Origin: an uncultured Candidatus Saccharibacteria bacterium | GTDB lineage: Bacteria > Patescibacteriota > Minisyncoccia > Phycocordibacterales > UBA9973 | Reading direction: 5' to 3' | Assembly: GCA_964496425.1 (NCBI GenBank) | Contig: CAZBZO010000003.1 | Coordinates: forward strand, 55,728-119,727 | DNA: 64,000 nt | In this document: positions 1,144 to 59,920 of the stretch, in pieces | How the letters are laid out: each line of letters opens with the position of its first letter | Numbering within the stretch: the stretch's first letter is position 1 | Position numbers and translations under genes: made by a program | Notes under the pieces: generated by a model | The model's database searches: none | Told to the model about the DNA's origin: nothing | The model's input: only the letters and a program-made list of their open reading frames with translations

Positions 1144-4100
1144 TTAGGCCTTGAGCAGGATTTTGATTGTGAGGGATTCGATTTTTATGCTTTCTCCATC
1201 ATTTTCTGCAAATTCCACATCCTTGGCAAGTACTGTTTTTTTGAAGTCATCCATGAATAGTTCGATAAGCCCAAGAGCATTGTCTGAAATTGTGATTGAA
1301 ATAACATCCTTAGGAGTTAGCCCTTGTTTTTTGCGAAGATCTTGCACAGCGCGAACGAGCTCGCGATACTGACCTTCCTGCTTGAGTTCAGGGGTAATTT
1401 CTGTATTGATTTGTAATTCTGTACCACTTAATACTTCTTTAACATTCAGTTCATCTTTAATAAGACCATGGAATTGTTCCTCAAGAACAGGGGTACTTGG
1501 AATTGTAATACTCTGTAATGTTTGTCGCACTGGGATACCTGCCTTCTGGCGAAGCGCATTTCCCTGCTGGCAAAAACCAATTACAATTTCCATTTTTGTA
1601 ATAAGTTCTTCATTTTCCGCCTTTTTCATTTCTGGCCATTTTGCCAAATGCACACTCTCCTGGTCTCCTTCAATCTTTAATTTCTGCCACAAGTCTTCCG
1701 CAAAAAATGGTGCGAATGGTGCCATGACTTTTGCAAGATTTTTCAAAACAAAATACAAAGTCATTTTTGCCTCTTCCCCGTCCCTCGTCTCGCCGGAGCC
1801 TTGCGCGGAGGCGGATTTCAGTCGATCTCGTGAACGACGCAGATACCAGGTGGAAAGATCGTCAATAAATTCCCGTATGGCTCGCGCTGGCTCGAGCACT
1901 TTATATTCATCAAGTGAGCTCGTTGTAAGTGCGATAAGCTGGTCGAGTCGTGCCACAATCCACGCATCCAAAACGTTCTCGTGCAACTCGTAACTTGTAA
2001 CTCGTAACTCCAAACTTTTATCTCTGTATAGTTCATAAAATGCCACGACGTTGTCGAGTAAGGTGAAAATCTTTCCCTGAAGTTCCTTCACAGTTTTTTC
2101 ATCAAAGTTTTTTGATTCACCTGGCTGATTGACCGAATACATCCACATGCGAAGCGTATCGACACCGTATTTGTCGATCATAGCCCATGGCTCAATAATG
2201 TTACCTTGCGACTTGCTCATTTTTTTACCTTTGTCGTCGAGGATGTGGCCAAGACAAATCACATTCTTATACGCTTTGCCGCGACCAAGAAGCGTCCCAA
2301 CAGCATGCAGTGTGTAGAACCATCCACGTGTTTGGTCGATCGCTTCGCAAATATAGTCTGCCGGATATCCAGCGCCATCTACCCACTCCTTATTTTCGAA
2401 AGGATAATGATCCTGCGCGAGCGGCATCGCGCCACTATCAAACCAGACATCCATGACTTCTTTTACTCGACGATATTCCTTCTTCGTCACGCCGGAGCCA
2501 TCGGCAGAGGCGGGGCCGTCTTTCTCAAGCACTATCTCATCAATGTACGGCCTATGCGGATCAAATTCGTAGTTTTCATTGTGCGGGAGTGGAGCGAAAG
2601 AGAGCTCGCGGATTTCAGCGTTTAGTAAATCAGAATGTTCGTTATTCTTTTTTTCTAAATCCCTAAATGTAAATCCTGAAGCGACAAATTCGAGCGCTCG
2701 ACTCGATGCTGCATGACCGACAATGAGAATATTTTTATTCTGAAATTTTGATTCAATATCATAAATAAAATCTCCCTGCCGTTTTAGCACATCCGCAAAG
2801 CTTTCTCCCCCTGCCAATCTTTTTTCTGGAGAATACACATAATCGTGATTGTAATATTGTTTCACTGCCGAAAGTTCTTGACCTTCAAACTCATTACCGG
2901 GTTCAAGTTCTTGAAGCCGTGCATCATACATCACTTCATCCGAAGGAAAACCTAGTTTCTGACAAACAATTTCTGTACTTTGGCGGGCTCGCTCAAAGGG
3001 CGAAGAAAAGACAACATCAATCTTTTCCCCCAGTTTTGAAATGCTCTCCAAGACTTGTCCTTGTCCTTTTTCTGTCAAAACAGCGTGATGATGATATTCG
3101 TCGGTCCACATTTTACTTGTATTGTTACCCGCTTCTCCGTGCCGCATCACAAAATATTTATTGCCAGATTTCTTGGCATATTTTTTGAGCATGTCGTACG
3201 AATCCACGACCAATCGCTCTCCATCTTCAGCCACCCAAATCGGAAGCGGTGTACCCCAGTACCGCTCACGCGAAATCGCCCAGTCTTTGATGTCTTTCAA
3301 CCATTCACCAAAACGGCCTTGCTTGATGTAACTCGGCTCCCAATTAATTCCTTCGTTTGCTTGTATGAGCTCTTCACGAAGCGTGGACATGCCGATATAC
3401 CACGAATCTCGCGCGTAGTAGATAAGCGGTGTTTTACAACGCCAGCAATGCGGATATGAGTGCGTATAGAGTTCTTTTTTGAAAAATAAATTTTTTGCTG
3501 TGAGGTAGCGAATGATGTCGACGTCGAGCGTCGGTTTGCCGGCTTCATCTTTTTCTTTTACAAATCGTCCTTCGAATTCACCAGTGCCTTTTACAAATGT
3601 GCCGTCAGGATTGACCAGATGAAATTTCGGCAAGCCGACTTTGGTACCAAGCTCAAAGTCTTCTTGTCCATACATGACTGCCGTGTGCACAATACCGGTA
3701 CCGTCCGTCGTCGTCACGAAGTCTGCTGGATAGACTTTATATGCGTTTGCGAGTTTTGGATCACCGGCATCAAGCTCTTGTAAATATGGAAAAAGCGGTT
3801 CATATGAGAGGCCAATTAAATCTCTTCCTTTCATTTCCTTTTCCATTATTTTCTCTGAACCAATCTCCATCTTTTGGAAGAAATCTTTAGAAGCAATAAA
3901 TATATCGTCTGATATTTTAATAAGAGTAGGCTTTTCCGCATCAAAATCCTGGCGATAGTATTTAAAAGCTACATAATCAATATCTTCTCCGACCGCAAGT
4001 CCAACATTCCCAGGTAAAGTCCAAGGTGTTGTTGTCCACGCGAGCAAATAGGTATTTTCTTGTCCAACAATTTTAAATTTCGCAGTGATCGAGAGATCCT

Positions 4101-4758
4101 TATCATCTTGATAGCCTTGTGCAAGTTCGTGACTCGAAAGCGCTGTGCCACAGCGCGGACAGTAGGGCACGACTTTGTAATCTTTATAGAGCAATTTTCG
4201 CTCGTCCACTTTGGCGAGCACGTTCCAAAGCGATTCGATGTAATCGTTGTGATAGGTCACATATGGATGCTCTTCGTCCACCCAGTAGCCGATGCGCTTG
4301 GTAAAGTCTTGCCAGGCATCGACGTATTTCCAGACATTTTCGCGACATTTTTGATTGAAAGCGGCAATGCCGTACTCTTCAATTTCTTTTTTTGATTTGA
4401 GACCAAGCGTTTTCTCGACTTCAAGTTCTACCGGAAGTCCATGCGTATCCCAGCCACCCTTGCGACGCACATGAAAACCCTGCATAGTTTTGTAGCGTGG
4501 AATAATGTCTTTGAATGAGCGGGATTCGAGGTGGTGGATACCCGGCTTGCCGTTGGCAGTCGGCGGACCCTCATAAAAAACAAATTCCTTTCCGCCTTCA
4601 TTTTTGGCCACTGATTGTTCAAATATTTTTCCTTCTTCCCAAAACTCTAAAACGCTCTCTTCACGCTGCGCAAGTGGTGATTTGCTTGTCCCGTTAGAAG
4701 TAGGTTCTACTTGGGAACCGTTAGTTCTAACGGGATGATTTTTTTTATTTTCATCCAT
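1144..4758 (-). CDS. ileS: Isoleucine--tRNA ligase (type 2) carrying an inserted histidine-phosphatase (PGAM-like) domain
   Basis: 1204-aa ORF. Class I HIGH region PPTANGKPGIHH and KMSKS are present, together with the IleRS-specific YPHCWRCKTPLIY and WAISRERYWGTPLP motifs. Between the WAISRERYWG motif and DVWFDSG there is a roughly 270-aa segment, against about 80 aa in E. coli IleRS. The segment contains RHGEAGNN, SSPFERARQSTEI and IVGHAASSRAL, which are the hallmark motifs of the histidine phosphatase superfamily. Confidence 0.9.
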   Translation of the reverse strand: MDENKKNHPVRTNGSQVEPTSNGTSKSPLAQREESVLEFWEEGKIFEQSVAKNEGGKEFVFYEGPPTANGKPGIHHLESRSFKDIIPRYKTMQGFHVRRKGGWDTHGLPVELEVEKTLGLKSKKEIEEYGIAAFNQKCRENVWKYVDAWQDFTKRIGYWVDEEHPYVTYHNDYIESLWNVLAKVDERKLLYKDYKVVPYCPRCGTALSSHELAQGYQDDKDLSITAKFKIVGQENTYLLAWTTTPWTLPGNVGLAVGEDIDYVAFKYYRQDFDAEKPTLIKISDDIFIASKDFFQKMEIGSEKIMEKEMKGRDLIGLSYEPLFPYLQELDAGDPKLANAYKVYPADFVTTTDGTGIVHTAVMYGQEDFELGTKVGLPKFHLVNPDGTFVKGTGEFEGRFVKEKDEAGKPTLDVDIIRYLTAKNLFFKKELYTHSYPHCWRCKTPLIYYARDSWYIGMSTLREELIQANEGINWEPSYIKQGRFGEWLKDIKDWAISRERYWGTPLPIWVAEDGERLVVDSYDMLKKYAKKSGNKYFVMRHGEAGNNTSKMWTDEYHHHAVLTEKGQGQVLESISKLGEKIDVVFSSPFERARQSTEIVCQKLGFPSDEVMYDARLQELEPGNEFEGQELSAVKQYYNHDYVYSPEKRLAGGESFADVLKRQGDFIYDIESKFQNKNILIVGHAASSRALEFVASGFTFRDLEKKNNEHSDLLNAEIRELSFAPLPHNENYEFDPHRPYIDEIVLEKDGPASADGSGVTKKEYRRVKEVMDVWFDSGAMPLAQDHYPFENKEWVDGAGYPADYICEAIDQTRGWFYTLHAVGTLLGRGKAYKNVICLGHILDDKGKKMSKSQGNIIEPWAMIDKYGVDTLRMWMYSVNQPGESKNFDEKTVKELQGKIFTLLDNVVAFYELYRDKSLELRVTSYELHENVLDAWIVARLDQLIALTTSSLDEYKVLEPARAIREFIDDLSTWYLRRSRDRLKSASAQGSGETRDGEEAKMTLYFVLKNLAKVMAPFAPFFAEDLWQKLKIEGDQESVHLAKWPEMKKAENEELITKMEIVIGFCQQGNALRQKAGIPVRQTLQSITIPSTPVLEEQFHGLIKDELNVKEVLSGTELQINTEITPELKQEGQYRELVRAVQDLRKKQGLTPKDVISITISDNALGLIELFMDDFKKTVLAKDVEFAENDGESIKIESLTIKILLKA

Positions 4759-7090: not shown

Positions 7091-7130
7091 AACGCCTGAC
7101 CGTTTTCCCAAACTGGTCAGGCGTTTTTTA
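7091..7130. terminator. Bidirectional intrinsic terminator between convergent genes
   Basis: AACGCCTGACC-(13 nt)-GGTCAGGCGTT followed by TTTTTT, located between the stop of the 6232-7086 gene (+) and argS (-). Confidence 0.7.
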
Positions 7131-8897
7131 CATCCTCTCCGGCATTTTGATGCCAAGGAGATAGAGGCCATTTTTCATGGTCGCTATAAATGCTTCCGTA
7201 AGCGCTATTTTGTACGGCGAATACTGGTCATCTTTACTCACAATTGGGTGCTGTGCATAGAAAGCATTGAACTCGCCGGCAAGCGCAGTGAGGTACGTAA
7301 CGATATGGTGTGGTTCGTATTCTTCTAAAGCGCGGGTGACCACTTCTGGAAATCGATATAAATATTTTTCGAGGGTAAAAATTTCTGCTGGCGTATCTCC
7401 CGTATTTGAAGCCAGGCTTTCTCCTTCGGCCTTTTTCAACACCGAACCAGCGCGCGTGGCACTGTATTGTAAGTACGGACCCGAATCACCCTCGAAAGAA
7501 ATAGACTTCTCTGCGTCGTAGACGATATCACTACCGATGCCAGAGCGAAGGATCGAATACTTAAGTGCCGCCACGCCAACGATCTCGGCGATTTCTTTTT
7601 TCTCACCATCGGCAAATTCTCGCTCGGCTATTTTTTCCAAAATCATATTTTGCGCATCAGCAAGGAGTGCCTCTCCGGTCACCACATTGCCTTTCCGCGA
7701 GCCCATCTTGCCTGTCGTAAGACGCATCATGCCGTGAGTGATATGCTTCATGCGAGCTGCTATATCGGGCTTCATAAGCTCGATAGCCTTTTGTACGACT
7801 TTCATATACTCAGCTTGTTCATTGGCAGTGATGACGATAGAGAGAGCGAGGTCAGATTCTTTTTCAAATTTGGTCTCAGTGAGACCAAGCTCTTTGGTTT
7901 CATACGTCGGCAGACCTTGCGAAGTGATGAACACGCGAGTATGAAGCTTCGGATCATGCTCTTCGGCTTTAAAGACGATCGCTCCATCACTTTCACTAAA
8001 CACTGAACCAACATTGTTTTTCACAATATCTACTCCGATCGGCGCCATGTCACTTTCAAAAAAATAATGCACAAACTTTGTACCCAAAAGTGCGTAAATC
8101 TCTTCAAATGCAGCAAGTGTCACTTCGCGACCCCAGTCATACAGCGCATTGATTTCAGGATCGCTCTTTTCATAGATTTTTTTATTGATCGCATCAATCT
8201 CTTTTTTGGCGTTTTCGTCTTCGTCATAGAGATTGGAACCTTCACTGTATCGCATACCGATATACTGCGCTTGAACCGAATCCGGCAAAGTTTCTTCCGG
8301 TTTACCGGTTTGCAAAAGTCGGTAGATAGTTTTAGCAACATGAAGACCGACATCTCCTTGATAGTTGGCACGGATCACCTGGGCGCCACTCCACTCCCCA
8401 AGACGAGCAATCGACTCACCAATAACATTGGTCATCAAGTGACCGATATGAAATGGCTTGAAGGGATTGGGGTCGGTGTACTCGACCATGATCTTTTTGC
8501 CGGCACTCATGCTATTTTGCCCCCATGTTTTAGTGTCTTTCAAAATGCCAATGGTCGCATCGGAGAAGAATCCGCGGGAGAGGTGGAAGTTGATAAAGCC
8601 GGGACCTGCAACTTGAATTTCCTGTATTTCAGGAAATTCACCCTGAGTCTGCCGAAGGGTCGCCACTATTTTCTCCGCAAGCTCGCGAGGATTTGTTTTG
8701 GCTTGGTTTGCCAAAACGAGTGCCACATTGGTCGAATAGTCTCCATGCGTAATATCGCTCGGATGCTCAAGCGCAAAATCCACCTCGGGCAATCCGAGCT
8801 GGGCAAGACTTTTTTGTATGAGATTTCGTATAGAATCGACGATCACGGAATCAGTGTAACATAAAAAAATGGACTCCTGCATTGAGCTGAAGTCCAT
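7128..8897 (-). CDS. argS: Arginine--tRNA ligase
   Basis: 589-aa ORF. PFHIGHLMTNVIGESIARL is the class I HIGH region in ArgRS context, and a DALR-type anticodon-binding C-terminus is present. The N-terminal SIRNLIQKSLAQLG...GDYSTNVAL aligns with the E. coli ArgRS N-terminus. The true start may be the GTG at 8846, because a terminator-like hairpin (8861-8899) covers the first ATG. Confidence 0.9.
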   Translation of the reverse strand: MDFSSMQESIFLCYTDSVIVDSIRNLIQKSLAQLGLPEVDFALEHPSDITHGDYSTNVALVLANQAKTNPRELAEKIVATLRQTQGEFPEIQEIQVAGPGFINFHLSRGFFSDATIGILKDTKTWGQNSMSAGKKIMVEYTDPNPFKPFHIGHLMTNVIGESIARLGEWSGAQVIRANYQGDVGLHVAKTIYRLLQTGKPEETLPDSVQAQYIGMRYSEGSNLYDEDENAKKEIDAINKKIYEKSDPEINALYDWGREVTLAAFEEIYALLGTKFVHYFFESDMAPIGVDIVKNNVGSVFSESDGAIVFKAEEHDPKLHTRVFITSQGLPTYETKELGLTETKFEKESDLALSIVITANEQAEYMKVVQKAIELMKPDIAARMKHITHGMMRLTTGKMGSRKGNVVTGEALLADAQNMILEKIAEREFADGEKKEIAEIVGVAALKYSILRSGIGSDIVYDAEKSISFEGDSGPYLQYSATRAGSVLKKAEGESLASNTGDTPAEIFTLEKYLYRFPEVVTRALEEYEPHHIVTYLTALAGEFNAFYAQHPIVSKDDQYSPYKIALTEAFIATMKNGLYLLGIKMPERM

Positions 8898-25555: not shown

Positions 25556-27070
25556 CTATTTATCCTGCATTATTTCTACTTGTTCGCCGCCAGAGAGACC
25601 AGACACAATTTCTACCAAATTCCCGTCCCCGATTGATCCAGTCACGACAGCCACATCAGTAGTCGCATTTTTTTTATCAGGCGAAATGACACGAACAAAC
25701 TCTGTGCCGTCTTTTGTGCCGATAGCTTTCTGTGGCACCACAAGCACATCTTTTTTCTCGAAAATTGTAATTGTCATGTTCGCAGTCATATCAGGGCGAA
25801 TGTCAGGATTTTTCTCGATTGCGGCTTTGATTTTGTAGTTTACGACGCCGTCATCAATAGTGCCTGAAGGTTCAACTTCAGAAATCGTGGCTGGGAAGTG
25901 GCGGTCAGTACCGAACGCATCAAACGTCACGTCAACAACTAGCCCGAGAATAATATTTTGAATGTTGGTTTCGTTTATTTTCGCTTCGATATAGAGATTG
26001 TCGACATCTTGAAGAACCATGACTTCATCGAGCGCTTGAGCAATTTCTCCATATTTGATATCAACCCGAGTAATCGTGCCAGTGGTGGGCGACACAAGGA
26101 TAGTTTTATCATATTTGGCCCGCGCAGTATCAAGTGCTGCTTCGGCAGAGAGTACGTCAGTGGAAAGATTGGAGAGTGAGAAATCAAGATTAGCTTGTTT
26201 TTCTGCAACTGCCGCTTGAGCAGTAGCTATTTCTGTATCTTTGTTCTTTAATGCCTCTTGGTACGCATTGTAATTGGCGACATAAGAATCTGTTTTCGTA
26301 TTTGGAATTGTAACGTACCAGATCGTATCCACATATTCTGATAAATCACCAGAAAAACTAATAAAAAGACCGTGAGTACCGAGCATAGTAGGCTCATTTT
26401 CGAGTACTTCTGCAACCGTTGTTTCAAGGTCAAACGTTCGAATTTCAAAATCATCTTGGCTGCTTGAACCACGTTTGAAAATAATCTTATAGGTTCCTTC
26501 CTGGCCGTTATAAATACCTGTAACGGTCGGCGGTACGACATTGTACGTATCGGATTCAGCCACAGCAGTAAGTCCACTTGAAAGAAGTGTGCGGTAGGCG
26601 CTTGCAACAAGTGAGTCTTGTTTTATCTTCGTATTTGAAAGTGCAACCATAGCACTATTGAGCGCTGCTTCGGAGATACCGATCTCCCCTGTTTTTGCCT
26701 TTGCAAGATCAGCTTCAGCGCTTTTAAGTGAAGCAAGTTCATCTTTATTATCAAGGCTCGCAAGGAGCTGGCCTTGCTTCACCACATCGCCGACTTTTAC
26801 CGTCACAGATCGTACGATCCCGCTCCCGGTAAAAGAGAGCCCGAGATCAGTTCCAGAAGTGACAGTCCCTGTCGCCAGCACTGTTTTCCGGAGATCAATG
26901 CGATTGACCGTCTCAGTTACGGCATTGCTTGCGCTATTGCCAGATGCTGTAAAAAAAATAATGACGATAAGTACGAGCGCGCCGAAAATACTCGACTTTT
27001 TGTGAGTTTTTACAAACATTTTTAACCGAAGGAAAAAAGCATTTAATTTTTCACGAATTGATTGAGCCAT
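25556..27070 (-). CDS. Periplasmic adaptor / membrane-fusion protein (HlyD/MacA-like)
   Basis: An N-terminal TM is followed by coiled-coil segments and a barrel-like C-terminus. It lies directly upstream of the MacB-like pair. Confidence 0.6.
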   Translation of the reverse strand: MAQSIREKLNAFFLRLKMFVKTHKKSSIFGALVLIVIIFFTASGNSASNAVTETVNRIDLRKTVLATGTVTSGTDLGLSFTGSGIVRSVTVKVGDVVKQGQLLASLDNKDELASLKSAEADLAKAKTGEIGISEAALNSAMVALSNTKIKQDSLVASAYRTLLSSGLTAVAESDTYNVVPPTVTGIYNGQEGTYKIIFKRGSSSQDDFEIRTFDLETTVAEVLENEPTMLGTHGLFISFSGDLSEYVDTIWYVTIPNTKTDSYVANYNAYQEALKNKDTEIATAQAAVAEKQANLDFSLSNLSTDVLSAEAALDTARAKYDKTILVSPTTGTITRVDIKYGEIAQALDEVMVLQDVDNLYIEAKINETNIQNIILGLVVDVTFDAFGTDRHFPATISEVEPSGTIDDGVVNYKIKAAIEKNPDIRPDMTANMTITIFEKKDVLVVPQKAIGTKDGTEFVRVISPDKKNATTDVAVVTGSIGDGNLVEIVSGLSGGEQVEIMQDK

Positions 27071-38094: not shown

Positions 38095-40659
38095 TTATTG
38101 GCATCCTTCACACAACAATGCATCTTGCGGATCCTCCGGTCCATGAACAACAAGTGTTGGTTTTTCCTTTTTTAATACGAGAGGAGGAGTCTCAATAGCA
38201 ATCTCAGGCATTGCCGCAACTACAGGAGTAGGTTCCACATATGGAGCTTCGGCAACCTCCTCTTTCTTTTCTTTGGTGCTAAATACTGCTGAAAATCCTT
38301 TATGTCCTTGCGCTTCGGATTTGTTGACTCGCGTCGTAGATTGCTCCGCATTGTGCTTCGGCTTCATGTGAAGATAGTACGTCGTCTTCAATCCCTTCTC
38401 CCACGCTGTCGAATAAATCTTCATTATTTCATCAACATCCCGGATTTCAAGATACATATTGCGCGAAATAGCTTGGTCTACCCATTTTTGCGCTCGAGCT
38501 GCAACTTCCACGAAAGCATATGGTGAAGTAGAAAATGATGTCTTATACATTGCTTTGATGTGCTCGGGGATTTCAGGAATATCGGCAAGGTCGCCATGCT
38601 GTTCAAGAATGGTCTCGCGATGCTTGTCCCAAAGATCAAGCGCGCGCAAATCGTTCACCAGGTTTGGATTGATCTCAAGATATTTTCCGGAAATTTTATT
38701 TCGAGAAAACATTTGAGCAAAGCGCGGATCAATGCCTGGCGACGTACCGGCGACGAGACCGATGTTCGCATTTGGAGCGATAGCAAGCACCGTAGCATTG
38801 CGAACACCTTTACGTACTTTTTTACGAAGTGCATCCCAATCCACTTGCGGAATCACTTCAAGACTTTCGGTCGGAATCGTCACCGCGAGTCCACGCTCAG
38901 ATTCAAGTTTTTTAAATGTATCCATCGGCACCATACCTTTACTCCAGCCGGAACCCTCGAAATTGTCATAACTACCACGTTCTGCAGCTAAATTGGCCGA
39001 CTCATCGATCGCCATGTAGCTAATGAATTCAAATACTTTGTCCGATAGATCAAACGCTTCTTTGTCTTCATATGAAAACCCGAGTTGTTCAATAGCGTCG
39101 GCAAAACCCATAAGTCCGAGTCCCACAGCACGGTTTTCAGAGTCGGCCTTGATCGCTTCTGCGATCGGGAGCTTGTTGACGTCGATCAAATTGTCGAGCT
39201 GGCGGATCGCTAAGCGTACGCTCTCTTCAAGACGCATCCAGTCGATCTGGCGGGCCACGATATGGCGCGGTAAGTTGATGGAAACCAAATTACAGACTGC
39301 CACATTGTCTTTATTTTGCGGCAAAGTGACTTCGGTACAGAGGTTGGAGGCATGGATCGTCCCGGTGTTGTTATTGAGTGCACGGAGATTGATGGTATCT
39401 TTCCAGGTTAGCCATGGATGCGATGTGGTCTCAAGGGAAACAAGGATATTCTTATACTGCTGGCGAGCTGGCATTTTCTTCCACATTTTCATATCGCCTG
39501 CTTCGGCCATTTGGGTATATTCCCCATAGCGCTTGGAAAAAGCTTTACCGTAGAGCTCTATCAAATCTGGTGTTTCTTTCGGATCAAACAAGTACCAATC
39601 ACTATCTTCTTTGACGCGCTTCATAAATTCGTCCGAAAGATAGACTGCGGTATCGGCGGTACGAGTACGACGATAGTCATCCCCTGCGTTTTGCTTCAGA
39701 TCGAGAAAATCTTGGAAATCAATATGCCAGTTTTCCATATAGAAACACAGAGCACCTTTTTTCTTGCCCCCGCGCTGCACGGCACGCACGGCCGAGTCAA
39801 TAATATGAAGAAATGGCACTGGGCCAGACGAGACAGTGTTGTTTGATTTGAGTACCGATCCATTGGCGCGAAGTTTAGTGACCGCAAGGCCGATGCCGCC
39901 GGTAGCCTTCGAGAGCATCAGCACATCCTTCACAGTTTTTCCAATATGATCCATATCGTCTTCGACTTGCATCAAGAAACAGTTGGAAAGCGAAGGACGA
40001 GTTGTCGCGGCACCAATGTTGGTCGAACCGGCAGAGAGATATTCAAGTTTGCTCATTTTGTCATAAAACTTTTTCGCCCAATCAGTCGGATTTTTTTCTT
40101 TCAAGGACATACCCATAGCAACTCGCATCCAAAAATATTGTGGTGTCTCGAGTGGTTTCTGGCTCGCATCTTTAATAAGATAGCGATCCATCATTGTTGA
40201 GATACCAGAATACTTATAGAGCTCATCGCGTTCGATCTTGAGCGCTTTGGAAAGTTCGTCGAGATCGAAAACTTTCGCAAGCTTTGGATCAAGAAGTCCA
40301 AGTTCGATACCGAGACGAATATAATGAGGGAAATGTCCGCGGTGAAGCGTGGTGAGCTCTTCTTTGGTGTCGAATCCGCCGATGACTTTCTTGTAGAGCG
40401 TTTTCAAAAGGAGACGTGTGGCAATTTTATCGTAATCGAGATCATACTGCGCGTTTTGAAGAGCCGCATTGATCGTCGCTTGATCCATTTCCTCCGTCGT
40501 AATCCCGTCATAGACCGTGAGCTCGGTCTCGGAAGCGATTTGGGTCACCTTACCGATCGGATCAGAGAGACCATAACATGCACGTTCGATCGAACGATTG
40601 ATTCGATCGGCGTTAAAAGGCTCTCGGGTTCCGTCTCGTTTGGTGATTGAAATGCTCAT
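38095..40659 (-). CDS. nrdA: Ribonucleoside-diphosphate reductase alpha (large) subunit, class I, with an ATP-cone
   Basis: 854 aa. The N-terminal ATP-cone is ISITKRDGTREPFNADRINRSIERA. The catalytic NLCTE thiyl-radical cysteine region and the C-terminal Cys pair (CEGC) are present. Confidence 0.9.
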   Translation of the reverse strand: MSISITKRDGTREPFNADRINRSIERACYGLSDPIGKVTQIASETELTVYDGITTEEMDQATINAALQNAQYDLDYDKIATRLLLKTLYKKVIGGFDTKEELTTLHRGHFPHYIRLGIELGLLDPKLAKVFDLDELSKALKIERDELYKYSGISTMMDRYLIKDASQKPLETPQYFWMRVAMGMSLKEKNPTDWAKKFYDKMSKLEYLSAGSTNIGAATTRPSLSNCFLMQVEDDMDHIGKTVKDVLMLSKATGGIGLAVTKLRANGSVLKSNNTVSSGPVPFLHIIDSAVRAVQRGGKKKGALCFYMENWHIDFQDFLDLKQNAGDDYRRTRTADTAVYLSDEFMKRVKEDSDWYLFDPKETPDLIELYGKAFSKRYGEYTQMAEAGDMKMWKKMPARQQYKNILVSLETTSHPWLTWKDTINLRALNNNTGTIHASNLCTEVTLPQNKDNVAVCNLVSINLPRHIVARQIDWMRLEESVRLAIRQLDNLIDVNKLPIAEAIKADSENRAVGLGLMGFADAIEQLGFSYEDKEAFDLSDKVFEFISYMAIDESANLAAERGSYDNFEGSGWSKGMVPMDTFKKLESERGLAVTIPTESLEVIPQVDWDALRKKVRKGVRNATVLAIAPNANIGLVAGTSPGIDPRFAQMFSRNKISGKYLEINPNLVNDLRALDLWDKHRETILEQHGDLADIPEIPEHIKAMYKTSFSTSPYAFVEVAARAQKWVDQAISRNMYLEIRDVDEIMKIYSTAWEKGLKTTYYLHMKPKHNAEQSTTRVNKSEAQGHKGFSAVFSTKEKKEEVAEAPYVEPTPVVAAMPEIAIETPPLVLKKEKPTLVVHGPEDPQDALLCEGCQ

Positions 40660-43701: not shown

Positions 43702-44331
43702 TTAGCTCAGATGCCGATAGTCGTTCCATTCTATCAAATGCCAATGAGCTGGTTCACGATGCTCAAAGACCACGAGACCTCCGGTCTTAATATTTGTGGA
43801 AAGTAAAAAGCGATAGTAGATATCAAAGGTCAGATGTTCTTCAAACATCAGCGTGAGTGCAAGTGCCTTAATAAAAGTACTGTGGGTAACGATCGCAATC
43901 TTTTCTTTATTGAGAGCGATCAAGTATGCGATCGCTTTCTCTGCACGAGCACGAATGTCGAGAAAATTTTCTTCGTCCTCATAGTGCCACAGCGGCTCTG
44001 TACGATTGTGCTCGCGAATGGTCGTACGAATCTTTTGTATCGACTCTTCATAAAATGGCTTATTCAAAAATGAGCTGGCAATTTTTTTCTCTCGAAAAAT
44101 ATCATGGGCGACTGGAGTTCTGCCGATCGCTCGGCCCACGATAGTGGCTGTTTCTTCTGCTCGCGATATTGGGCTTGTGATAAGAGCATCAAATGGCGCT
44201 TCTTTCGCAAGATGCTCTGCCAAAAGCCGAGCCTGATGTATACCAGCATCGTTTAAATGATCAGCATCTGGGCCAAAAATCTTGTCCCGGGCGTTGTCTG
44301 TCTCTCCATGTCGAATAAAATAAAATTTCAT
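43702..44331 (-). CDS. Histidine phosphatase family protein (phosphoglycerate-mutase-like)
   Basis: MKFYFIRHGETDNARDKIFG is the RHGE motif, ITSPISRAEETATIV is the SPLxRAxxTA motif, and the C-terminal His motif is present. The track ORF start at 44349 is a TTG. The ATG at 44331 is preferred. Confidence 0.75.
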   Translation of the reverse strand: MKFYFIRHGETDNARDKIFGPDADHLNDAGIHQARLLAEHLAKEAPFDALITSPISRAEETATIVGRAIGRTPVAHDIFREKKIASSFLNKPFYEESIQKIRTTIREHNRTEPLWHYEDEENFLDIRARAEKAIAYLIALNKEKIAIVTHSTFIKALALTLMFEEHLTFDIYYRFLLSTNIKTGGLVVFEHREPAHWHLIEWNDYRHLS

Positions 44332-44351
44332 AGTATTTCCAACTCCCAAAG

Positions 44352-44453: not shown

Positions 44454-46274
44454 CTATTCCACCGTCACCGACTTCGCCAAGTTACGCGGCTTGTCGACCG
44501 GTTTGCCGGAGAGTGACGCGATATAGTAGGCGAAAAGCTGAAGTGGTACTGCCGCCAAAATCGGAGAAAGCATTTCTTTTGTTTCTGGAATAAAAAACAC
44601 GTCACTCACAAGCTCTTCGACATCCTTATCCCCCACCGTCGCAAGCGCCAAGACCGGTCCCTTGCGAGCGCGTACTTCAGTCACATTGGAAATCATTTTT
44701 TCATACACACTATCTTTGAGGAGAAGTGCAACAGTCGGGAAAAGCTCATCAATCATAGCAAGCGGTCCATGTTTCATTTCACCGGCACCATAACCTTCCG
44801 CGTGAATATATGAAATCTCTTTGAGCTTGAGCGCTCCTTCAAGTGCCGAAGGATAATTGTATTTGCGGCCGATAAACATAAAGTCTCGATATCCGCTGTA
44901 TCGCTCGGCGAGAATTTTAATTTCCTCTCGCGCATGCAGTATCTCGTCGAGCTTAGCGGGAATATCCAAAAGACCCTGCACAAGCGATTTACCTTCTTCT
45001 TCTGTCATGCTTCTTTGTCGTCCAAGATACAACGTAAAAAGAGAAAGCACGATGAGTTGTGAAATAAAAGCTTTGGTGGATGCGACACCAATCTCCGGCC
45101 CAGCATGATTGTAGACGCCGGCATCAGTTTCGCGAGCAATGGTGGATCCAACGACGTTTACAATACCCAAGGTCAGTGCACCCTTACGCTTGGCCTCACG
45201 GATCGCTTCAATTGTGTCTGCTGTTTCACCGGATTGTGATACGGCAAGAAGGACCGTATCTTTGTCGATCACGGGCGAGCGATAGCGGAATTCAGAGGCA
45301 ATCTCCACTTCCACTGGTATCCCCGCATATTCTTCAAGCATGTATTCTCCGACCAGTCCTGCATAGTAGGCCGTACCGCAACCGACAATAATGATCCGTT
45401 TAATATTTTTGAGTTTGTCTGCCACATCGATCAAGCCGCCGAGCTTTGCCATGCCACGCTCAGCAATCAGCCGGCCACGAAGCGTATTGCGCACGACTTC
45501 CGGCGCTTCCATCATTTCCTTCAACATAAAATGCTCGTAGCCACCTTTGGTGATCTCTTCAATATTGAAATCAATAATGTCAGGCAGTCGATCAATCAGC
45601 GTTTGCTCGAGCGTGTAAATCTTATATGCGTTCGGCGTAAGCACTGCTACTTCCCCATCGTTTAAGTACACGACATTTTTTGTATGCTGCATGAGTGGTG
45701 TAGCATCGGACGCAATAAAATTCTCATCCACACCCACACCGATGATGAGCGGGCTCCCCATGCGCGCAGCAATTATTTTTTCGGGCTCCTTCGTATCCAC
45801 GACCGCGAGTCCATAGGTGCCGCGAAGTTCTTTAAGCACGATCATCATGGCATCGAGTATCTTTGGTGTCGTTTTCAAAGTCTCAGCGATCAAATGCGCA
45901 ATGACTTCCGAATCGGTATCAGATGCAAATTGGTGCCCACGACCAGCAAGCATTGTTTTCAACTCTTTATAGTTTTCAATGATGCCATTGTGTACCAAAG
46001 ATATCCGCCCGGTATCGTCTGCGTGCGGATGAGCATTTTTTTCAAGCGGCTCACCATGAGTCGCCCAACGAGTGTGAGCAATGCCTGACGTACCTGTAAA
46101 ACCCGTAGGAATTTTTTTCTCGAGGTTATCAACTGGTCCGACTGCCCGAACAACTCCTGTCCCAGGAATAAAAATACCTGAGGAGTCATAGCCGCGATAT
46201 TCAAGCGCATGCAAGCCTTCAACCAAAAGGGTTGTAGCATTTCGTTTACCAGTGTAGGCGATAATTCCGCACAT
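44454..46274 (-). CDS. glmS: Glutamine--fructose-6-phosphate aminotransferase (isomerising)
   Basis: MCGIIAYTG is the Ntn-Cys start, two SIS domains are present, and the C-terminal KSVTVE end is present. Confidence 0.95.
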   Translation of the reverse strand: MCGIIAYTGKRNATTLLVEGLHALEYRGYDSSGIFIPGTGVVRAVGPVDNLEKKIPTGFTGTSGIAHTRWATHGEPLEKNAHPHADDTGRISLVHNGIIENYKELKTMLAGRGHQFASDTDSEVIAHLIAETLKTTPKILDAMMIVLKELRGTYGLAVVDTKEPEKIIAARMGSPLIIGVGVDENFIASDATPLMQHTKNVVYLNDGEVAVLTPNAYKIYTLEQTLIDRLPDIIDFNIEEITKGGYEHFMLKEMMEAPEVVRNTLRGRLIAERGMAKLGGLIDVADKLKNIKRIIIVGCGTAYYAGLVGEYMLEEYAGIPVEVEIASEFRYRSPVIDKDTVLLAVSQSGETADTIEAIREAKRKGALTLGIVNVVGSTIARETDAGVYNHAGPEIGVASTKAFISQLIVLSLFTLYLGRQRSMTEEEGKSLVQGLLDIPAKLDEILHAREEIKILAERYSGYRDFMFIGRKYNYPSALEGALKLKEISYIHAEGYGAGEMKHGPLAMIDELFPTVALLLKDSVYEKMISNVTEVRARKGPVLALATVGDKDVEELVSDVFFIPETKEMLSPILAAVPLQLFAYYIASLSGKPVDKPRNLAKSVTVE

Positions 46275-55142: not shown

Positions 55143-57161
55143 TTACGGGCAGTATTCCCAGAAGTCTTTTGTCACCCCAAAAATAGTCGATCCTGTTCCC
55201 AAATATCCTTTTGAACCAATGGAAAAGCCGATGGCACGAAAACGCGCACTTCCCCCAAAATCTGCTTTCTGTGTCCAAATATTTGTGGCAGGATCATATT
55301 CCCAGAAATCTTTCGAAGGAGTAGTATAATTTATCACCCCTGTTCCAATATATCCTTTTGAACCAATAGAAAAAGAAGTTGCAAAATTCCTTTCTGTTCC
55401 CCCAAAATCAGCTTTCTGTGTCCAGATATTTAAAGTTGGATCATACTGCCAAAAGTCTTTTTTAAAACTATTACCATCGTGTCCAATAGCGATATATCCT
55501 TTCCCATCAATCGAAAGACCAGCGGCTGCAAAGCGCGCTGTACTGAAATCTGCCTTTTGTGTCCACGTATTCGCCATTGGATCATACTGCCAGAAATCTT
55601 TTAGATAGGAATTACTACTGCCGGTACCTTGATATCCCTTACTGCCAATCGAAAAACCGACGGCTCCCTGGCGCGCTGTACTGAAATCTGCCTTTTGTGT
55701 CCACGTATTCGCCATTGGATCATACTGCCAGAAATCACCTGAATTATTACCAAGTCCAATCGATCCTGTTCCCAAATATCCTTTTCCATTTAAAGAAAAT
55801 CCTGTCCCTGCAGTACGTGCACTCCCTCCAAAATCAGCTTTCTGTGTCCAGATATTTGTTGAGGGATCGTATTCCCAGAAGTCTTTAGAGAGAGCAGTGT
55901 CCCAACCCGTTCCAACATATCCTTTCCCATCAACCGAAAAACCGACGGCTGCTTCTCTTGCTGTCCCTCCAAAATCCGCCTTCTGCGTCCAAGTATTCGG
56001 TGTACATGCAAGCGGCGTCACCGTAATTGTCGTCTGCTTGGTGACATTCCCCGGCTGGGCAGTGATAGTAAATGTTTTTGTTTCTGTCAGAGTTCCAGTT
56101 GAAGCAGTACCCGTCGGTACAGTAACTGTTCCAATATTTTGATCAATTAATGCAGAGGTGCAGTTGGTTGTTGCCCATGACAGTGTGGATGAAGATCCGC
56201 TTGCAATCGTGGTTGGATTGGCGATGAAAGTTGAAATAGCACAAGGGGGTGGAGCTGTCACTGTAATGGTTTTGATGGCTGTGATGTTGCCTGGCTGTGC
56301 CGTAAGTTTGTAGGTCGTGGTTTGCGTCAGTGGACTCGTGAGTACGGTCCCAAGTGATACTGGAGTGACAGATCCAACGTTGTTGTCGATAGTTGTGCTA
56401 GTACAGTTGGTAGTGCTCCATTTCAGTGTTGATGTTTGTCCAGAGGTGACGGAGGCGGGCAATGCATTGAAGTAGTTGATTGCACATGGTGGAGGTGCAG
56501 TGACGGTGACAGTTTTGGTGGCCGTGGCAGAGTTGATGGCATTGCTTGCGGTGAGAGTGAAGGCGGTAGTGGTGGAGAGGATCGGAGTAGTGGTGGAGCC
56601 GATGCCGACAGGTGTGACTGGACCGATGCCGGAGATGGAAGCCGCAGTGCAATTGAATGTTTTCCAAGAGAGAGTAGATGTTTGGCCAGTGATGATGGAA
56701 GGTGGTGTGGCAGAAAAAGCTTGGATGACGCATTGGGGTCCGACGGTGACCGTGATGGTAGCGTTGACTACGTTGCCACCATTGGCGGTGAGGGTAAATG
56801 GTGTGGTGGTAGTAAGTGGACCGGTGGAAATTGTGCCGCCGTTGGGATTGACTGGACCGATACCGGAGATGGAAGCAGAGGTCAGACAACCGTGAGTACT
56901 CCAAGTGAGAGTGGATGCAGTGTTGGTGGCAATGACGGAAGGAGTGGCAAAGAAAGAAATGATTTCACAACCGGCAAAGGAGGGATGGGTTTCTTCTTCA
57001 GCTGGGGTGGAAGGGAGAGAGGTGGATTGTTTTTCAATGTTGAGGGCTCTTCCAGAAAAATCACCGCTACGGTCGCCAGAGAAGTAGTAGACCGTGCCAC
57101 CTAAGAGTGCAACAACTGCGAGGAATGCAATGACTTTCAGAGAGTTATATTGTTGATCCAT
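55143..57161 (-). CDS. Large surface protein with an N-terminal TM, about 4 tandem Ig-like domains and about 6 beta-propeller-type 48-aa repeats
   Basis: Ig-like repeats of about 88 aa (PPPCAI..F.A.P..V.SGQTSTL.W.T.NCT...ID.N.G.V...) are followed by repeats WTQKADFGG.AR..A.GFS..GKGY.GTG...KDFW.YDP..N. Confidence 0.6.
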   Translation of the reverse strand: MDQQYNSLKVIAFLAVVALLGGTVYYFSGDRSGDFSGRALNIEKQSTSLPSTPAEEETHPSFAGCEIISFFATPSVIATNTASTLTWSTHGCLTSASISGIGPVNPNGGTISTGPLTTTTPFTLTANGGNVVNATITVTVGPQCVIQAFSATPPSIITGQTSTLSWKTFNCTAASISGIGPVTPVGIGSTTTPILSTTTAFTLTASNAINSATATKTVTVTAPPPCAINYFNALPASVTSGQTSTLKWSTTNCTSTTIDNNVGSVTPVSLGTVLTSPLTQTTTYKLTAQPGNITAIKTITVTAPPPCAISTFIANPTTIASGSSSTLSWATTNCTSALIDQNIGTVTVPTGTASTGTLTETKTFTITAQPGNVTKQTTITVTPLACTPNTWTQKADFGGTAREAAVGFSVDGKGYVGTGWDTALSKDFWEYDPSTNIWTQKADFGGSARTAGTGFSLNGKGYLGTGSIGLGNNSGDFWQYDPMANTWTQKADFSTARQGAVGFSIGSKGYQGTGSSNSYLKDFWQYDPMANTWTQKADFSTARFAAAGLSIDGKGYIAIGHDGNSFKKDFWQYDPTLNIWTQKADFGGTERNFATSFSIGSKGYIGTGVINYTTPSKDFWEYDPATNIWTQKADFGGSARFRAIGFSIGSKGYLGTGSTIFGVTKDFWEYCP

Positions 57162-57268: not shown

Positions 57269-59920
57269 CTATGTTGCTTTGATGTGCTTCCTGCGATTGC
57301 TTAAATACCGAAACCACAATTTGGCAAGTTCAACTAAGGCAACATTCAACACGAGCCACACGCCGATAAGCCAGAGCCACGACAGTGGCAGGGGGGCAAT
57401 ACCAAAGATATCGCGCATAAACGGTATGGTCATCGTGGCAATCAATATTGCAAAGGCAATGAGAACACTCAGGTTGAGTTTTTTGTTTGAAAAAATATTG
57501 TATGAAAAAAGTGGTCGGTGCAGTGACCGAAACGAAAACGCTACCACCAAAATATACGAGGAAAAACACACGAAAAATATTGACCGCGCTACGGATATGT
57601 CGAGTCCGATTTTAAGGAGCCAGTAATATAAAAAGAAGAGAAGTGTCGAGGTAAACACACCGATGCCAAAAGAAATGAGCTTCACTTCACTAGTAAATAG
57701 ATCTTTGGCAAACGAATGATGGTTTTTTTCTTTGTCCAAATCCTGATCAAACGCAAACGCCAAGGCCGGCAAACTGCCAGTAAACAAATTAACCCAAATG
57801 ATCTGGAGTGCCGTGACGGGAAGCGCAATACCAGCGATCAGGCTGCCGCCGACCACAAACACTTCGTCGAGTGAGTTGGACATGAGATACATAAACGTTT
57901 TGCGCACGTTGGCCAAAATCCGTCGGCCTTCGTCGATCGCCATCGTGATAGTTTGAAAATTATCATCGAGAAGTACGAGATCCGCTGCGCTTTTTGCCAC
58001 ATCAGATCCCGAGCCAAGCGAGACGCCAATATCCATGGCTTTGAGTGCCGGCGCGTCGTTGACCCCGTCTCCGGTCATCGCCACTACTTCTCCTAAACTA
58101 CGGAAAAGCGTACCGATCCGCAGTTTATCTTCTGGAGTCACCCGCGCAAATATTTTGATGCGTGAAATAATTTCGCGGAGTTCCTCATCGCTCATGCTAT
58201 GAATATCGCCACCAGTGATAATTTCGTCATCTGCCACACTCCAACCGAGGTCGGTCGCCACTGCGCGCGCCGTACCTGCGAGATCCCCGGTCATGATTAC
58301 CACCCGCACGCCGCGCCCTTCAATGGTACGGATCGCTTCTGGCACTTCTTCGCGAATCGGATCATGAAAAGAAAGTATTCCTTCCAAGGTGATCCCGGTG
58401 ATCGCTTCCAGTTTGATATGCGATAAATGTCCTTTAGGGAATGTGCCGACAGCAATCAACCGCTCTCCACGCTCACTGGTATCGGCGATCCAGGACTCGA
58501 TTGCAAGATAGGTATCCTTATCAACCGTAGAACGTTTGAGAAGTACATCCGGTGCGCCCATGACAATATATCTGTGCGCATCTGAAGACACGGAAAATTT
58601 ATTAGTGGAATTGAATGGAATATGAAGTTCTGTTTTTTTGAGAAGAGCTTCTCGAACAGGGATGTGATGTGTAACGCAGGCTTTGGCGATATTGACTTCA
58701 AAGGGCCGGCCGACAAAGTGCCACAATGCTTCCGGCTGATTTCCATTCTCCACCACGACATCGATGTTTGAAAGTGCCAGTGTAAGAATATGTTTCTGCG
58801 CATCTGAGAGGTGCGTGATGCGTTCTTTAAACGCAGATTTATACAGTAAGGTATCTACGATATGCACCCCGACCAATTCCATGTCAGCTTTGGTAAGCGT
58901 GCCAGTCTTGTCCGTCATGATCATAGTAGTGGACCCAAGCGTTTCAGACGCCGAAAGGTTGCGCACGATGCCTTTCTTGGCGGCAATGCGTTCTGCTCCA
59001 ACGGCCAGGATCACCGTGAGCGCAATCGGCAATGCTTCAGGCACCGCCCCGACAGCGACCGCAAGGGAGAGCACCAGCATCGCAAGAAGCGGCTCACCGT
59101 TTGAAATACCAAGAAGGAAAATACCTGCCACGATCACTAGCGTGATGCACAAGATAAACCATGATAGTTTTTTGATTCCGGCTTGAATCGGGGTGGGCGT
59201 GCGATCAATCGAAGAAACAATACCGGCGATTTTACCGATTTCAGTGTTACTACCAGTCGCAACAACAACCGCTGTCGCAAATCCTTCAACGACGAGAGTT
59301 CCGGCATGAACCATATTGGTCCGATCGGCAACGAGAGATCCTTCAGGAACAAGCTCTGTCTTTTTTTCAATCGGTAAAGATTCGCCAGTGAGAATCGCTT
59401 CGTCGATCCGTATATTGTTGACCGAGATCAATCGAGCATCAGCTGGTACACGAGAACCATAGGACAATTTGATAATATCTCCTGGTACCAAAAGCGCTGA
59501 GTCAATTTCTTGATCCGCCCCGCCGCGGATGACCCGCGAACGATCTTTGATGTAGGTCGCGAGCTGGTCAAGCGTATGCTCAGCATGATATTCGCGATAA
59601 AATCCAAGTCCGACATTTACGATAATCGCTCCGACGATCACACCCATGTTGATCCATTCACCAAGTATGCCGGTAAGAACTGCGGCACCGACTAATATAA
59701 AAATGAGTGGACTTGTAAATTGTTTTGCGAAAATGCGCGGCGCGCTGGCGCGCTCACGACTTTGAAAATTATTTCCTCCGAAACGCATCCGACGTGTGGT
59801 CGCTTCTACTTCAGAAAGCCCTTCGGGGTGAGTACCAAGCAGATTGTATATATCATCAATTGAAGTGAACCATGGAGCAGGAACTAGATTTTTTTTATCC
59901 ATTATATTTTTTATTGGCAT
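57269..59920 (-). CDS. P-type cation-transporting ATPase (type IIA/IIB, Ca2+/Mg2+-like)
   Basis: DKTGTLT phosphorylation site, TGES, MTGDGVNDAPALKAMDIGV hinge, and 10 TM helices. Confidence 0.9.
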   Translation of the reverse strand: MPIKNIMDKKNLVPAPWFTSIDDIYNLLGTHPEGLSEVEATTRRMRFGGNNFQSRERASAPRIFAKQFTSPLIFILVGAAVLTGILGEWINMGVIVGAIIVNVGLGFYREYHAEHTLDQLATYIKDRSRVIRGGADQEIDSALLVPGDIIKLSYGSRVPADARLISVNNIRIDEAILTGESLPIEKKTELVPEGSLVADRTNMVHAGTLVVEGFATAVVVATGSNTEIGKIAGIVSSIDRTPTPIQAGIKKLSWFILCITLVIVAGIFLLGISNGEPLLAMLVLSLAVAVGAVPEALPIALTVILAVGAERIAAKKGIVRNLSASETLGSTTMIMTDKTGTLTKADMELVGVHIVDTLLYKSAFKERITHLSDAQKHILTLALSNIDVVVENGNQPEALWHFVGRPFEVNIAKACVTHHIPVREALLKKTELHIPFNSTNKFSVSSDAHRYIVMGAPDVLLKRSTVDKDTYLAIESWIADTSERGERLIAVGTFPKGHLSHIKLEAITGITLEGILSFHDPIREEVPEAIRTIEGRGVRVVIMTGDLAGTARAVATDLGWSVADDEIITGGDIHSMSDEELREIISRIKIFARVTPEDKLRIGTLFRSLGEVVAMTGDGVNDAPALKAMDIGVSLGSGSDVAKSAADLVLLDDNFQTITMAIDEGRRILANVRKTFMYLMSNSLDEVFVVGGSLIAGIALPVTALQIIWVNLFTGSLPALAFAFDQDLDKEKNHHSFAKDLFTSEVKLISFGIGVFTSTLLFFLYYWLLKIGLDISVARSIFFVCFSSYILVVAFSFRSLHRPLFSYNIFSNKKLNLSVLIAFAILIATMTIPFMRDIFGIAPLPLSWLWLIGVWLVLNVALVELAKLWFRYLSNRRKHIKAT

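Follow-up and report, generated by a model that had tools for sequence, protein, structure and literature searches.

A histidine-phosphatase domain nested in the CP3 subdomain of type-2 isoleucyl-tRNA synthetases of Paceibacteria

Aminoacyl-tRNA synthetases (aaRS) are among the most conserved enzymes, and domains inserted into them have time and again proved to add functions, among them editing, signalling and resistance. In isoleucyl-tRNA synthetase (IleRS) the CP3 subdomain comprises residues 473–534 of the Candida albicans enzyme (PMC7191050) and residues 459–526 of the yeast enzyme (PMC7955072). It binds zinc in Thermus thermophilus IleRS (PMC7191050; PMC7955072), is structurally variable among IleRS and has a poorly defined role (PMC7191050). 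The yeast CP2-3 linker (453-ARDWNVSRNRYWG-465) directly precedes CP3 and is part of the pocket for A76, the 3′ end of the tRNA, and for reveromycin (PMC7955072). In type-2 IleRS, the GXHH variant of the class I signature HXGH is tied to mupirocin hyper-resistance (Brkic et al., PMC10485003). We analyzed a stretch of 64,000 nucleotides from an uncultured member of the Patescibacteria (assembly GCA_964496425.1, contig CAZBZO010000003.1, positions 55,728 to 119,727), referred to as the window, whose minus strand carries an ileS gene at 1144–4758. This single unbroken open reading frame, confirmed by profile searches, encodes a type-2 (eukaryote-like) IleRS of 1204 amino acids that hosts a nested histidine-phosphatase (His_Phos_1) domain at residues 529–727 (2578–3174; all coordinates of ileS features refer to the minus strand of the window). 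As the best explanation we propose, at a probability of roughly 0.45, a working type-2 IleRS with a captured, active phosphomonoesterase that would act together with IleRS/tRNA metabolism.

The borders of the nested domain were placed by alignment to PDB entries and by BLAST comparison with insert-less IleRS. In the alignment to the Priestia megaterium IleRS2 structure 8c8w (E 1e-231), residues 30–528 of the window protein pair with residues 11–478 of the chain and residues 728–1129 with residues 482–869; the extra segment is therefore a clean insertion of ~200 amino acids that replaces about three loop residues. The distance between the motifs WAISRERYWG and DVWFDSG amounts to 267 residues, compared with ~59 in an insert-less relative (L005) and ~60 in P. 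megaterium IleRS2. A first-pass annotation, made from the letters of the window alone, had pointed to an overlong segment between these two motifs at 2449–3261 and had quoted three phosphatase signatures within it. Its coordinates bracket the whole stretch and are essentially right, and the signatures lie where it had put them: RHGEAGNN at residues 539–546, SSPFERARQSTEI at residues 585–597 and IVGHAASSRAL at residues 679–689. The window counterpart of the yeast A76-pocket linker is WAISRERYWG (residues 493–502, 3253–3282), and the insert begins a few residues downstream of it. CP3 is thus divided into an N-terminal half (residues 503–528, 3175–3252, aligned to 8c8w ~456–478) and a C-terminal half (residues 728–769, 2452–2577, aligned to 8c8w 482–~514), after which the second half of the Rossmann fold resumes at DVWFDSG (residues 770–776, 2431–2451).

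A Pfam search, which the first-pass annotation had suggested as a check of its assignment, returned His_Phos_1 (PF00300) at residues 536–701 with an E-value of 2.3e-23 and 83.3 bits against a cut-off of 21.7, and so bears the assignment out. Structure prediction also agrees with the idea of an independently folded excursion: the insert modelled alone with AF2 reached a pLDDT of 95.1 and a pTM of 0.91, and its pLDDT lies above 90 in the full-length AlphaFold model (residues 25–1204, built with a 112-sequence alignment; mean pLDDT 85, pTM 0.78). The full-length model matches IleRS2 and yeast IleRS structures with TM scores of 0.73–0.87, normalised by target length. In a Foldseek search, the insert model was assigned with probability 1.0 and a TM score of ~0.71 to the branch-1 histidine phosphatases 6s2q, 6s2r, 4ij5, 4pz9 and 1h2e, with TIGAR and CobC as further matches. 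A sequence search of the PDB placed the same kind of enzyme on top (best match 4ij5, E 1.6e-7).

The catalytic residues were located within this fold as follows. The RHG motif (residues 539–541, 3136–3144) contains H540, the predicted phospho-acceptor nucleophile, and both R539 and H540 are invariant; R590 (2989–2991) is the phosphate-binding arginine of an SSPFxR motif; E617 (2908–2910), within RLxE, is the predicted general acid; and H682 (2713–2715), within IVGHAA, is the second catalytic histidine. Ten residues of the insert, namely N533, Y535, R539, H540, G565, S586, R590, E617, R660 and H682, are invariant in 112 full-length orthologues. At the loci of 80 further species-level genomes R539, H540, R590, E652, R660 and H682 are found in 80/80 cases and E617 in 79, with Asp in the remaining one. 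R590 and H682 are likewise kept in an alignment of free-standing relatives, which have Glu or Asp at the position of E617. On proper alignment the catalytic His and Arg residues are hence in place, as the quoted motifs had implied. The insert diverges faster than its host, with a mean pairwise identity of 45.6% compared with 69.6% for the IleRS core, and such fast divergence around a fixed active site leads us to expect a working enzyme rather than a decayed passenger. Judged from sequences and models, the insert is a complete branch-1 histidine-phosphatase domain with every catalytic residue, and purifying selection is focused on its active site. We consider it likely that the insert is an active phosphatase.

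The same conservation bears on a non-catalytic explanation, according to which the insert would be a pseudo-enzyme, a structural module or a tRNA-binding appendage that replaces or extends the zinc knuckle of CP3. Most orthologues keep the knuckle with the consensus WxCxxC ... CxCGG. In the window protein both Cys pairs are replaced (VAEDGE ... EKDGPASADGSG), and since all knuckle cysteines are affected, the CP3 zinc site is probably lost in this IleRS. This loss would suit a replacement module, as would the variability and poorly defined role of CP3 (PMC7191050). However, the catalytic residues are almost perfectly kept in ~190 orthologues, in extra copies of the domain and in the standalone relatives while the rest diverges, which is the signature of a retained active site, and we regard a merely structural role as highly improbable.

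Next, we turn to the reality and spread of the nested architecture. An identical protein is encoded in two independent assemblies, Logan SRR10036058 and NCBI GCA_013573075.1. All 120 best full-protein homologues (57–71% identity, 1130–1348 aa) combine PF00300 with IleRS domains; those with names are labelled Paceibacterota, Nomurabacteria, Minisyncoccia or Parcubacteria. Among GTDB species representatives, at least 387 genomes encode a relative of the insert. The locus counts given here and above refer to the best 80 of these, whose titles comprise Paceibacterota, Nomurabacteria, Zambryskibacteria, Kaiserbacteria, Vogelbacteria, Parcubacteria and many generically labelled metagenome-assembled genomes; in 80/80 of them the insert matches at about residue 500 of an IleRS reading frame of 1120–1350 aa. 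The nested form is the norm in a large clade of Paceibacteria. The survey of related IleRS that the first-pass annotation had called for thus finds the domain in every one of the 120 homologues and 80 loci, and the same counts, together with the two assemblies, rule out the misassembly that it had considered as a possible refutation.

An artefact or removable element, that is a chimeric assembly, an intein or an intervening sequence lost before the mature enzyme is made, has a practically negligible probability for further reasons as well. Only the unusual length speaks for it, together with a C-terminal junction (...PLPHN|E) that superficially resembles the His-Asn end of an intein. Against it, the same reading frame turns up in assemblies made independently and in the genomes of at least 80 species. 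The segment does not interrupt this frame, and its junctions are conserved (KKSGNKY... and ...NAEIRExxFxPLPHNE). An intein was rejected specifically: Pfam gave no HINT or intein family, the junctions K529... and ...HN|E728 lack Cys, Ser or Thr at the +1 position, and the fold is that of a phosphatase.

The first-pass annotation had also called the architecture undescribed for IleRS. This stands with regard to the literature, where a full-text search gave no paper describing a histidine-phosphatase domain in IleRS or in any aaRS, and studies of IleRS evolution from 2023 (PMC10485003) and 2026 make no mention of a nested phosphatase. It has to be qualified with regard to the public databases, in which the architecture is present unremarked, with copies annotated automatically as ‘class I tRNA ligase family protein’ or ‘isoleucyl-tRNA synthetase’, and in which the family ileS_w_GNAT sets a precedent for an IleRS with an additional enzyme. 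Moreover, neither of the two component families is new, and aaRS are known for acquiring extra domains.

We examined where else the phosphatase family occurs. Searching 1.84 billion representative proteins with the insert alone yielded 3438 matches at E <= 1e-3 and 256 at E <= 1e-10. Among 144 new top matches, 82 contain an IleRS core, whereas the other 62 contain neither an IleRS core nor any other aaRS; most of the 62 are proteins of 185–215 aa. No other aaRS carrying the phosphatase family was found among these 144. Standalone proteins of 189–198 aa are collinear with the insert from start codon to stop and share its invariant residues: in the alignment their N-terminus MKLNNKYYILRHG corresponds to KKSGNKYFVMRHG of the insert, and their end ...GELRELN-stop to ...NAEIRELSF. 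Two short matches that looked like standalone proteins (P0030 and P0057) were rejected as frameshift-split ileS genes; P0265 is probably a fragment too, because its cluster mate measures 723 aa.

Six of the seven standalone genes that could be placed lie between argS and an insert-less ileS (931–984 aa), with gaps of -4 to 113 nt. The window itself has argS, encoding arginyl-tRNA synthetase, as upstream neighbour of ileS at 7128–8897 on the minus strand (Pfam Arg_tRNA_synt_N, tRNA-synt_1d and DALR_1), and among the 80 nested loci argS is found upstream on the same strand in 55, whereas a second family member is nearby in only one. As six of the seven free genes adjoin an insert-less ileS and a single nested locus has a second family member, the free gene in an argS–phosphatase–ileS operon and the same coding unit nested in CP3 are complementary, mutually exclusive states. 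The insert-less IleRS are 36–46% identical to the window IleRS, so the nested and the adjacent state belong to different Patescibacteria lineages. These sequences suggest that the insert derives from a whole small gene beside ileS, of PhoE/GpmB/CobC-like type, that was captured into CP3. At one locus with the free gene (L007 1–1629, NCBI GCA_003555075.1) we also noted two HD_3/YfbR-like genes ~4–5 kb upstream of the operon, which echo an HD domain fused to IleRS in other lineages.

A second His_Phos_1 gene lies within the window at 43702–44349 on the minus strand (Pfam E 9.2e-29), adjoining glmS (44454–46274); its product has 215 aa if translation begins at a TTG, and 209 aa if it begins at the ATG at 44331. 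The first-pass annotation had taken this gene, at 43702–44331, for a standalone paralogue of the insert. This did not hold: the product belongs to a remote branch of the superfamily. It shares only 28% identity with the insert, over 72 aa, and does not cluster with the phosphatases associated with IleRS. On the same grounds it was rejected as the source of the insert.

The nested position is not restricted to CP3. In other IleRS lineages, of the WAISRNRYWG/DCWFES type, the family occupies two more sites, one between DxWFxS and KMSKS and one after KMSKS, so that three insertion sites are known including CP3, with up to four copies per IleRS protein. P0278 carries copies at CP3, site 2 and site 3; P0288 (1419 aa, complete, with six cluster members on contigs of up to 1.06 Mb) carries them at sites 2 and 3 and has no CP3 insert; P0384 and P0261 are further multi-insert IleRS. 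The Arg-His pair, the second Arg, the acid and the second His are kept in all copies of the multi-insert IleRS. Copies at the same site of different proteins tend to be mutual best matches, and by sequence the copies of P0261 look like internal duplications. A fragment outside IleRS (P0300, 771 aa) contains tandem phosphatase copies.

Other domains were observed beside the CP3 phosphatase in some IleRS proteins. An HD/HD_3 phosphohydrolase domain resides in the C-terminal DUF5915 region of P0141, P0150, P0152, P0188, P0220 and P0229, orthologues of 1306–1348 aa with ~59–60% identity (for example residues 1133–1178 of P0220 and 1150–1228 of P0229). In P0340 (1066 aa, JGI) a domain of the REP-associated tyrosine transposase type (RAYT/Y1_Tnp) is nested in the CP1 region (residues 326–472, 81.3 bits against a cut-off of 80); the same protein contains the CP3 phosphatase at residues 680–854 and a GNAT domain after DCWFES at residues 921–1065. 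Outside IleRS, four clusters (P0283 and P0395–P0397) consist of TsaC (Sua5/YrdC) with a phosphatase of this family attached at its C-terminus, and the gene for one such fusion (L094 1964–3292) adjoins genes for the CCA-adding enzyme, TGT, queuosine salvage and TruD.

The positions of the three insertion sites can be read in two further ways. Since they flank the ATP-binding elements DxWFDSG and KMSKS, the phosphatase might clear by-products at the mouth of the synthetic site, hydrolysing pyrophosphate (PPi), AMP or a phosphorylated-nucleotide side product and thereby pulling activation forward or recycling nucleosides in an auxotrophic symbiont. It would fit that IleRS, ArgRS, TsaC and the CCA-adding enzyme use ATP or other NTPs and release PPi and/or AMP, and that some orthologues add an HD_3 domain of the YfbR-like nucleotidase type. 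However, we know of no precedent for a branch-1 histidine phosphatase that hydrolyses PPi, destruction of AMP would be wasteful, and the need for such clearing in IleRS rather than in all aaRS would be left unexplained. A pyrophosphatase signature was not detected in the 64-kb window, which is uninformative for the whole genome. All in all, we find by-product clearing improbable.

The same three sites bracket the KMSKS loop, so the domain might instead act in cis as a protein phosphatase that takes an inhibitory phosphate off IleRS itself, for example from a Ser or Thr in or near this loop. Kinases of the HipA type phosphorylate GltX and TrpS, and the histidine-phosphatase superfamily includes protein phosphatases such as SixA, Sts-1 and PGAM5. 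However, no kinase was present in any neighbourhood examined, the TsaC fusion and the free operon form would have no explanation, and the SixA model gave 29.6 bits where 74.5 are needed; a role of this kind seems very doubtful to us.

The genomic associations instead point to tRNA. All partners of the family, that is the ArgRS neighbour, IleRS, TsaC and the tRNA-maturation cluster, belong to tRNA metabolism, and its association with IleRS is specific and repeated. We judge it somewhat more probable than its opposite that the insert is functionally tied to IleRS/tRNA. The associations also favour a tRNA-linked role over proofreading of aminoacyl-adenylates by the insert, which is unlikely because an adenylate is no phosphomonoester and because CP1 has kept its editing motifs. 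With regard to chemistry, the insert would hydrolyse phosphomonoesters via a phosphorylated His540, and E617 would serve as the acid. It might remove a blocking 2′- or 3′-terminal phosphate from the CCA end of tRNAIle or, as an alternative substrate, the last phosphate that remains after opening of a pyrophosphate or cyclic phosphate at this end; the repaired tRNAIle would then be charged by the neighbouring synthetic site (‘heal-and-charge’). The analogy is with HD-domain hydrolases that reverse tRNA pyrophosphorylation by toxSAS: these toxins pyrophosphorylate tRNA CCA ends and thus block charging, and phosphohydrolases restore charging, sometimes tRNA-specifically (10.1101/2021.04.30.441581; PMC11559606).

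We prefer this mechanism because the insert follows the A76-pocket linker, because its partners are all tRNA-related, because HD domains co-occur in some orthologues, and because of the charge of the free forms along with the published (pyro)phosphorylation of CCA ends. Standalone forms are mostly basic (pI 8.7–10 in seven of nine), whereas nested forms are acidic (median pI 6.0), which by sequence is compatible with a free form that needs an RNA affinity of its own. Healing of tRNA 3′ ends specifically is nevertheless a tentative proposal and, taken by itself, rather unlikely. A still bolder version, which we rate as unlikely, sees in the insert the first enzyme of the histidine-phosphatase fold to act on RNA, a built-in ‘eraser’ of a 2′/3′-phosphate on tRNAIle. 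The blocking phosphate could then stem from toxSAS-type pyrophosphorylation, from tRNases that form cyclic phosphates or from an endogenous regulatory kinase, and both the gene between argS and ileS and the TsaC fusion would supply this activity in a free or alternative form.

Several points weigh against a tRNA-linked activity, and part of them favour its main rival. We know of no branch-1 histidine phosphatase that acts on RNA ends, and the closest solved relatives of the insert are all small-molecule phosphatases. None of the curated NCBIfam subfamily cut-offs (dPGM, CobC, SixA, PspA and GpmB) was reached by the insert or its standalone relatives, so that substrate and specificity are not readable from homology. 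In detail, dPGM (NF038349) gave 58 bits where 225 are required, with TIGR01258 unlisted for the insert; the alpha-ribazole phosphatase CobC (TIGR03162) gave 60.6 bits for the window protein and 91–99 for the standalone relatives against a cut-off of 162.9; and the phosphohistidine phosphatase SixA (TIGR00249) as well as the phosphoserine phosphatase PspA/iPSP (NF045917, 46.1 bits compared with 350) were rejected likewise. In Patescibacteria, TsaC has a wide range of small enzymes without relation to one another as fusion partners, of which MGMT-like PF01035 is the commonest and TruB, 2H phosphoesterase, MPG, GNAT and Nudix are others; a fusion is hence a weaker functional signal in this phylum. 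The seventh standalone gene (L009) sits away from ileS. A high pI is common in AT-rich proteomes of the candidate phyla radiation (CPR), which renders the charge contrast only suggestive, and the argS–phosphatase–ileS order may be a conserved arrangement that testifies to where the insert came from and to nothing else.

The main rival to a tRNA-linked role holds that an independent housekeeping phosphatase of broad specificity, of PhoE/GpmB type, was absorbed from upstream of ileS into a tolerant loop, where nesting merely secures co-expression in a streamlined genome. Besides the small-molecule relatives, the lack of a specific equivalog and the many partners of TsaC, this would agree with the structural variability of CP3 among IleRS, which makes it a permissive site (PMC7191050), with the GNAT, HD and even RAYT transposase domains that IleRS of Patescibacteria host elsewhere, and with the faster divergence of the insert. 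However, the link with IleRS recurs and is specific: of seven standalone genes, six form a tight operon with ileS; nested copies, up to four of them, occupy three sites in IleRS; and partners and neighbours are all tRNA enzymes, with no other aaRS and no metabolic enzyme among the 144 top matches. We consider such hitch-hiking unlikely, yet it is the strongest of the alternatives to a phosphomonoesterase that works with IleRS/tRNA metabolism.

The significance of the locus lies in an intact second active site, of another enzyme class, that is embedded in an essential synthetase close to where the tRNA acceptor and ATP enter. Hundreds of uncultivated bacterial species with a host-dependent life share this arrangement. 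The path from operon neighbour to nested domain, together with multiple sites and copies, argues for selection and not for accident. If the insert does act on tRNA ends or on charging products, it would uncover a further level at which CPR bacteria control the quality of translation or defend themselves against toxins, and widen the substrate range of the histidine-phosphatase superfamily. If it erases terminal phosphates of tRNAIle, Paceibacteria would possess an aaRS that is inherently immune to phosphorylation of the tRNA 3′ end or able to control it. Even as a passenger, the domain would illustrate the way in which a streamlined genome lodges an enzyme in a tolerant loop of a protein that the cell cannot do without. 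The invariant second active site, its place beside the acceptor-end pocket, the trail from operon to insert and the recurrence at three sites merit follow-up.

With regard to the remaining parts of the host enzyme, the TIGR00392 ileS model scores 855.4 bits (cut-off 621.4) in a match that the insert splits into two stretches (NCBIfam). The Pfam domains of the 1204-aa protein are tRNA-synt_1, also split in two, His_Phos_1, Anticodon_1 (residues 931–1082, 1513–1968, E 2.8e-31) and the C-terminal type-2 IleRS domain DUF5915 (residues 1116–1202, 1153–1413, E 2.2e-14). The best PDB matches are P. megaterium IleRS2 (8c8w/8c8u) and T. thermophilus IleRS (1ile), ahead of the IleRS1 entries 8c9e and 1ffy, and the presence of DUF5915 together with IleRS2 as nearest PDB relatives places the protein in type 2. 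The class I and CP1 editing motifs GIHH, KMSKS, TTTPWT and GTGIVH were all found. The class I signature is the swapped GIHH (residues 73–76, 4531–4542), a GXHH variant of HXGH; the top PDB match 8c8w is a GVHH mutant, consistent with GIHH in the window IleRS. An assignment to the acquired mupirocin-resistance enzymes MupA or MupB (NF000257 and NF000258) was rejected, as the scores of 739 and 728 bits fall short of the 1900 required. The CP1 hallmarks TTTPWT (residues 242–247) and GTGIVH (residues 353–358) lie within 3685–4035, and their columns are invariant or nearly so in the 112-orthologue alignment; by sequence the CP1 editing site looks intact. The KMSKS loop is found at residues 846–850 (2209–2223).

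The G+C content of the insert-coding DNA is 40.5%, compared with 44.3% for the rest of ileS and 43.9% for the whole window, which is only a small gap. No tRNA genes and no Rfam families were detected within the 64-kb window. Other genes of the window encode a class I ribonucleotide reductase (38095–40659), a Kelch-repeat protein (55143–57161), a P-type ATPase (57269–59920) and an HlyD-like protein (25556–27070).

In comparison with known systems, the window protein shares with type-2 IleRS (8c8u/8c8w and 1ile) both Rossmann halves, CP1 editing, CP2, CP3, KMSKS, the anticodon-binding domain and the type-2 C-terminal domain, as well as the GXHH signature variant of hyper-resistant IleRS2. It differs in that its CP3 holds an independent enzyme fold of ~200 residues where 8c8w has only residues 478–482, and in that it lacks the Zn-knuckle cysteines. 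The branch-1 phosphatases used for comparison were PhoE/YhfR (1h2e and 1ebb), iPSP1 of Hydrogenobacter (4ij5), the mycobacterial GpgP Rv2419c (4pz9), the mycobacterial hydrolases 6s2q/6s2r and CobC (6e4b and 6nru). They resemble the insert in fold (TM ~0.7), in the RHG/Arg/Glu/His set, in their minimal size of ~200 aa and in the small cap. However, the insert is only 17–24% identical to them, and whereas they are free enzymes of metabolism, its family occurs inside a tRNA synthetase or in an operon with one.

Joining of a CobC-like phosphatase to a nucleic-acid enzyme is also seen in the RNase H/acid phosphatase of the Rv2228c type (NF005567). This family is among the best NCBIfam matches, with 58 bits for the insert and 76–84 for the standalone relatives, but neither are members at a cut-off of 326; moreover, the Rv2228c type is an end-to-end fusion with RNase H, whereas the insert is nested in an aaRS. 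NF040702 (ileS_w_GNAT) likewise represents IleRS with an additional enzymatic domain, and P0340 combines a GNAT domain with the CP3 phosphatase; in contrast, a GNAT domain is absent from the window protein, whose 338 bits lie far below the 1999 that this model requires. The closest functional analogy, on which the preferred mechanism of tRNA 3′-end repair is modelled, is offered by the SAH enzymes MESH1 and ATfaRel, phosphohydrolases that restore a chargeable tRNA 3′-OH. A second example of tRNA 3′-end repair is the HD domain of bacterial CCA-adding enzymes. These tRNA-repair hydrolases use a metal-dependent HD domain and reside outside any aaRS, whereas the domain described here is predicted to proceed through a phospho-histidine intermediate and lies within the synthetase itself.

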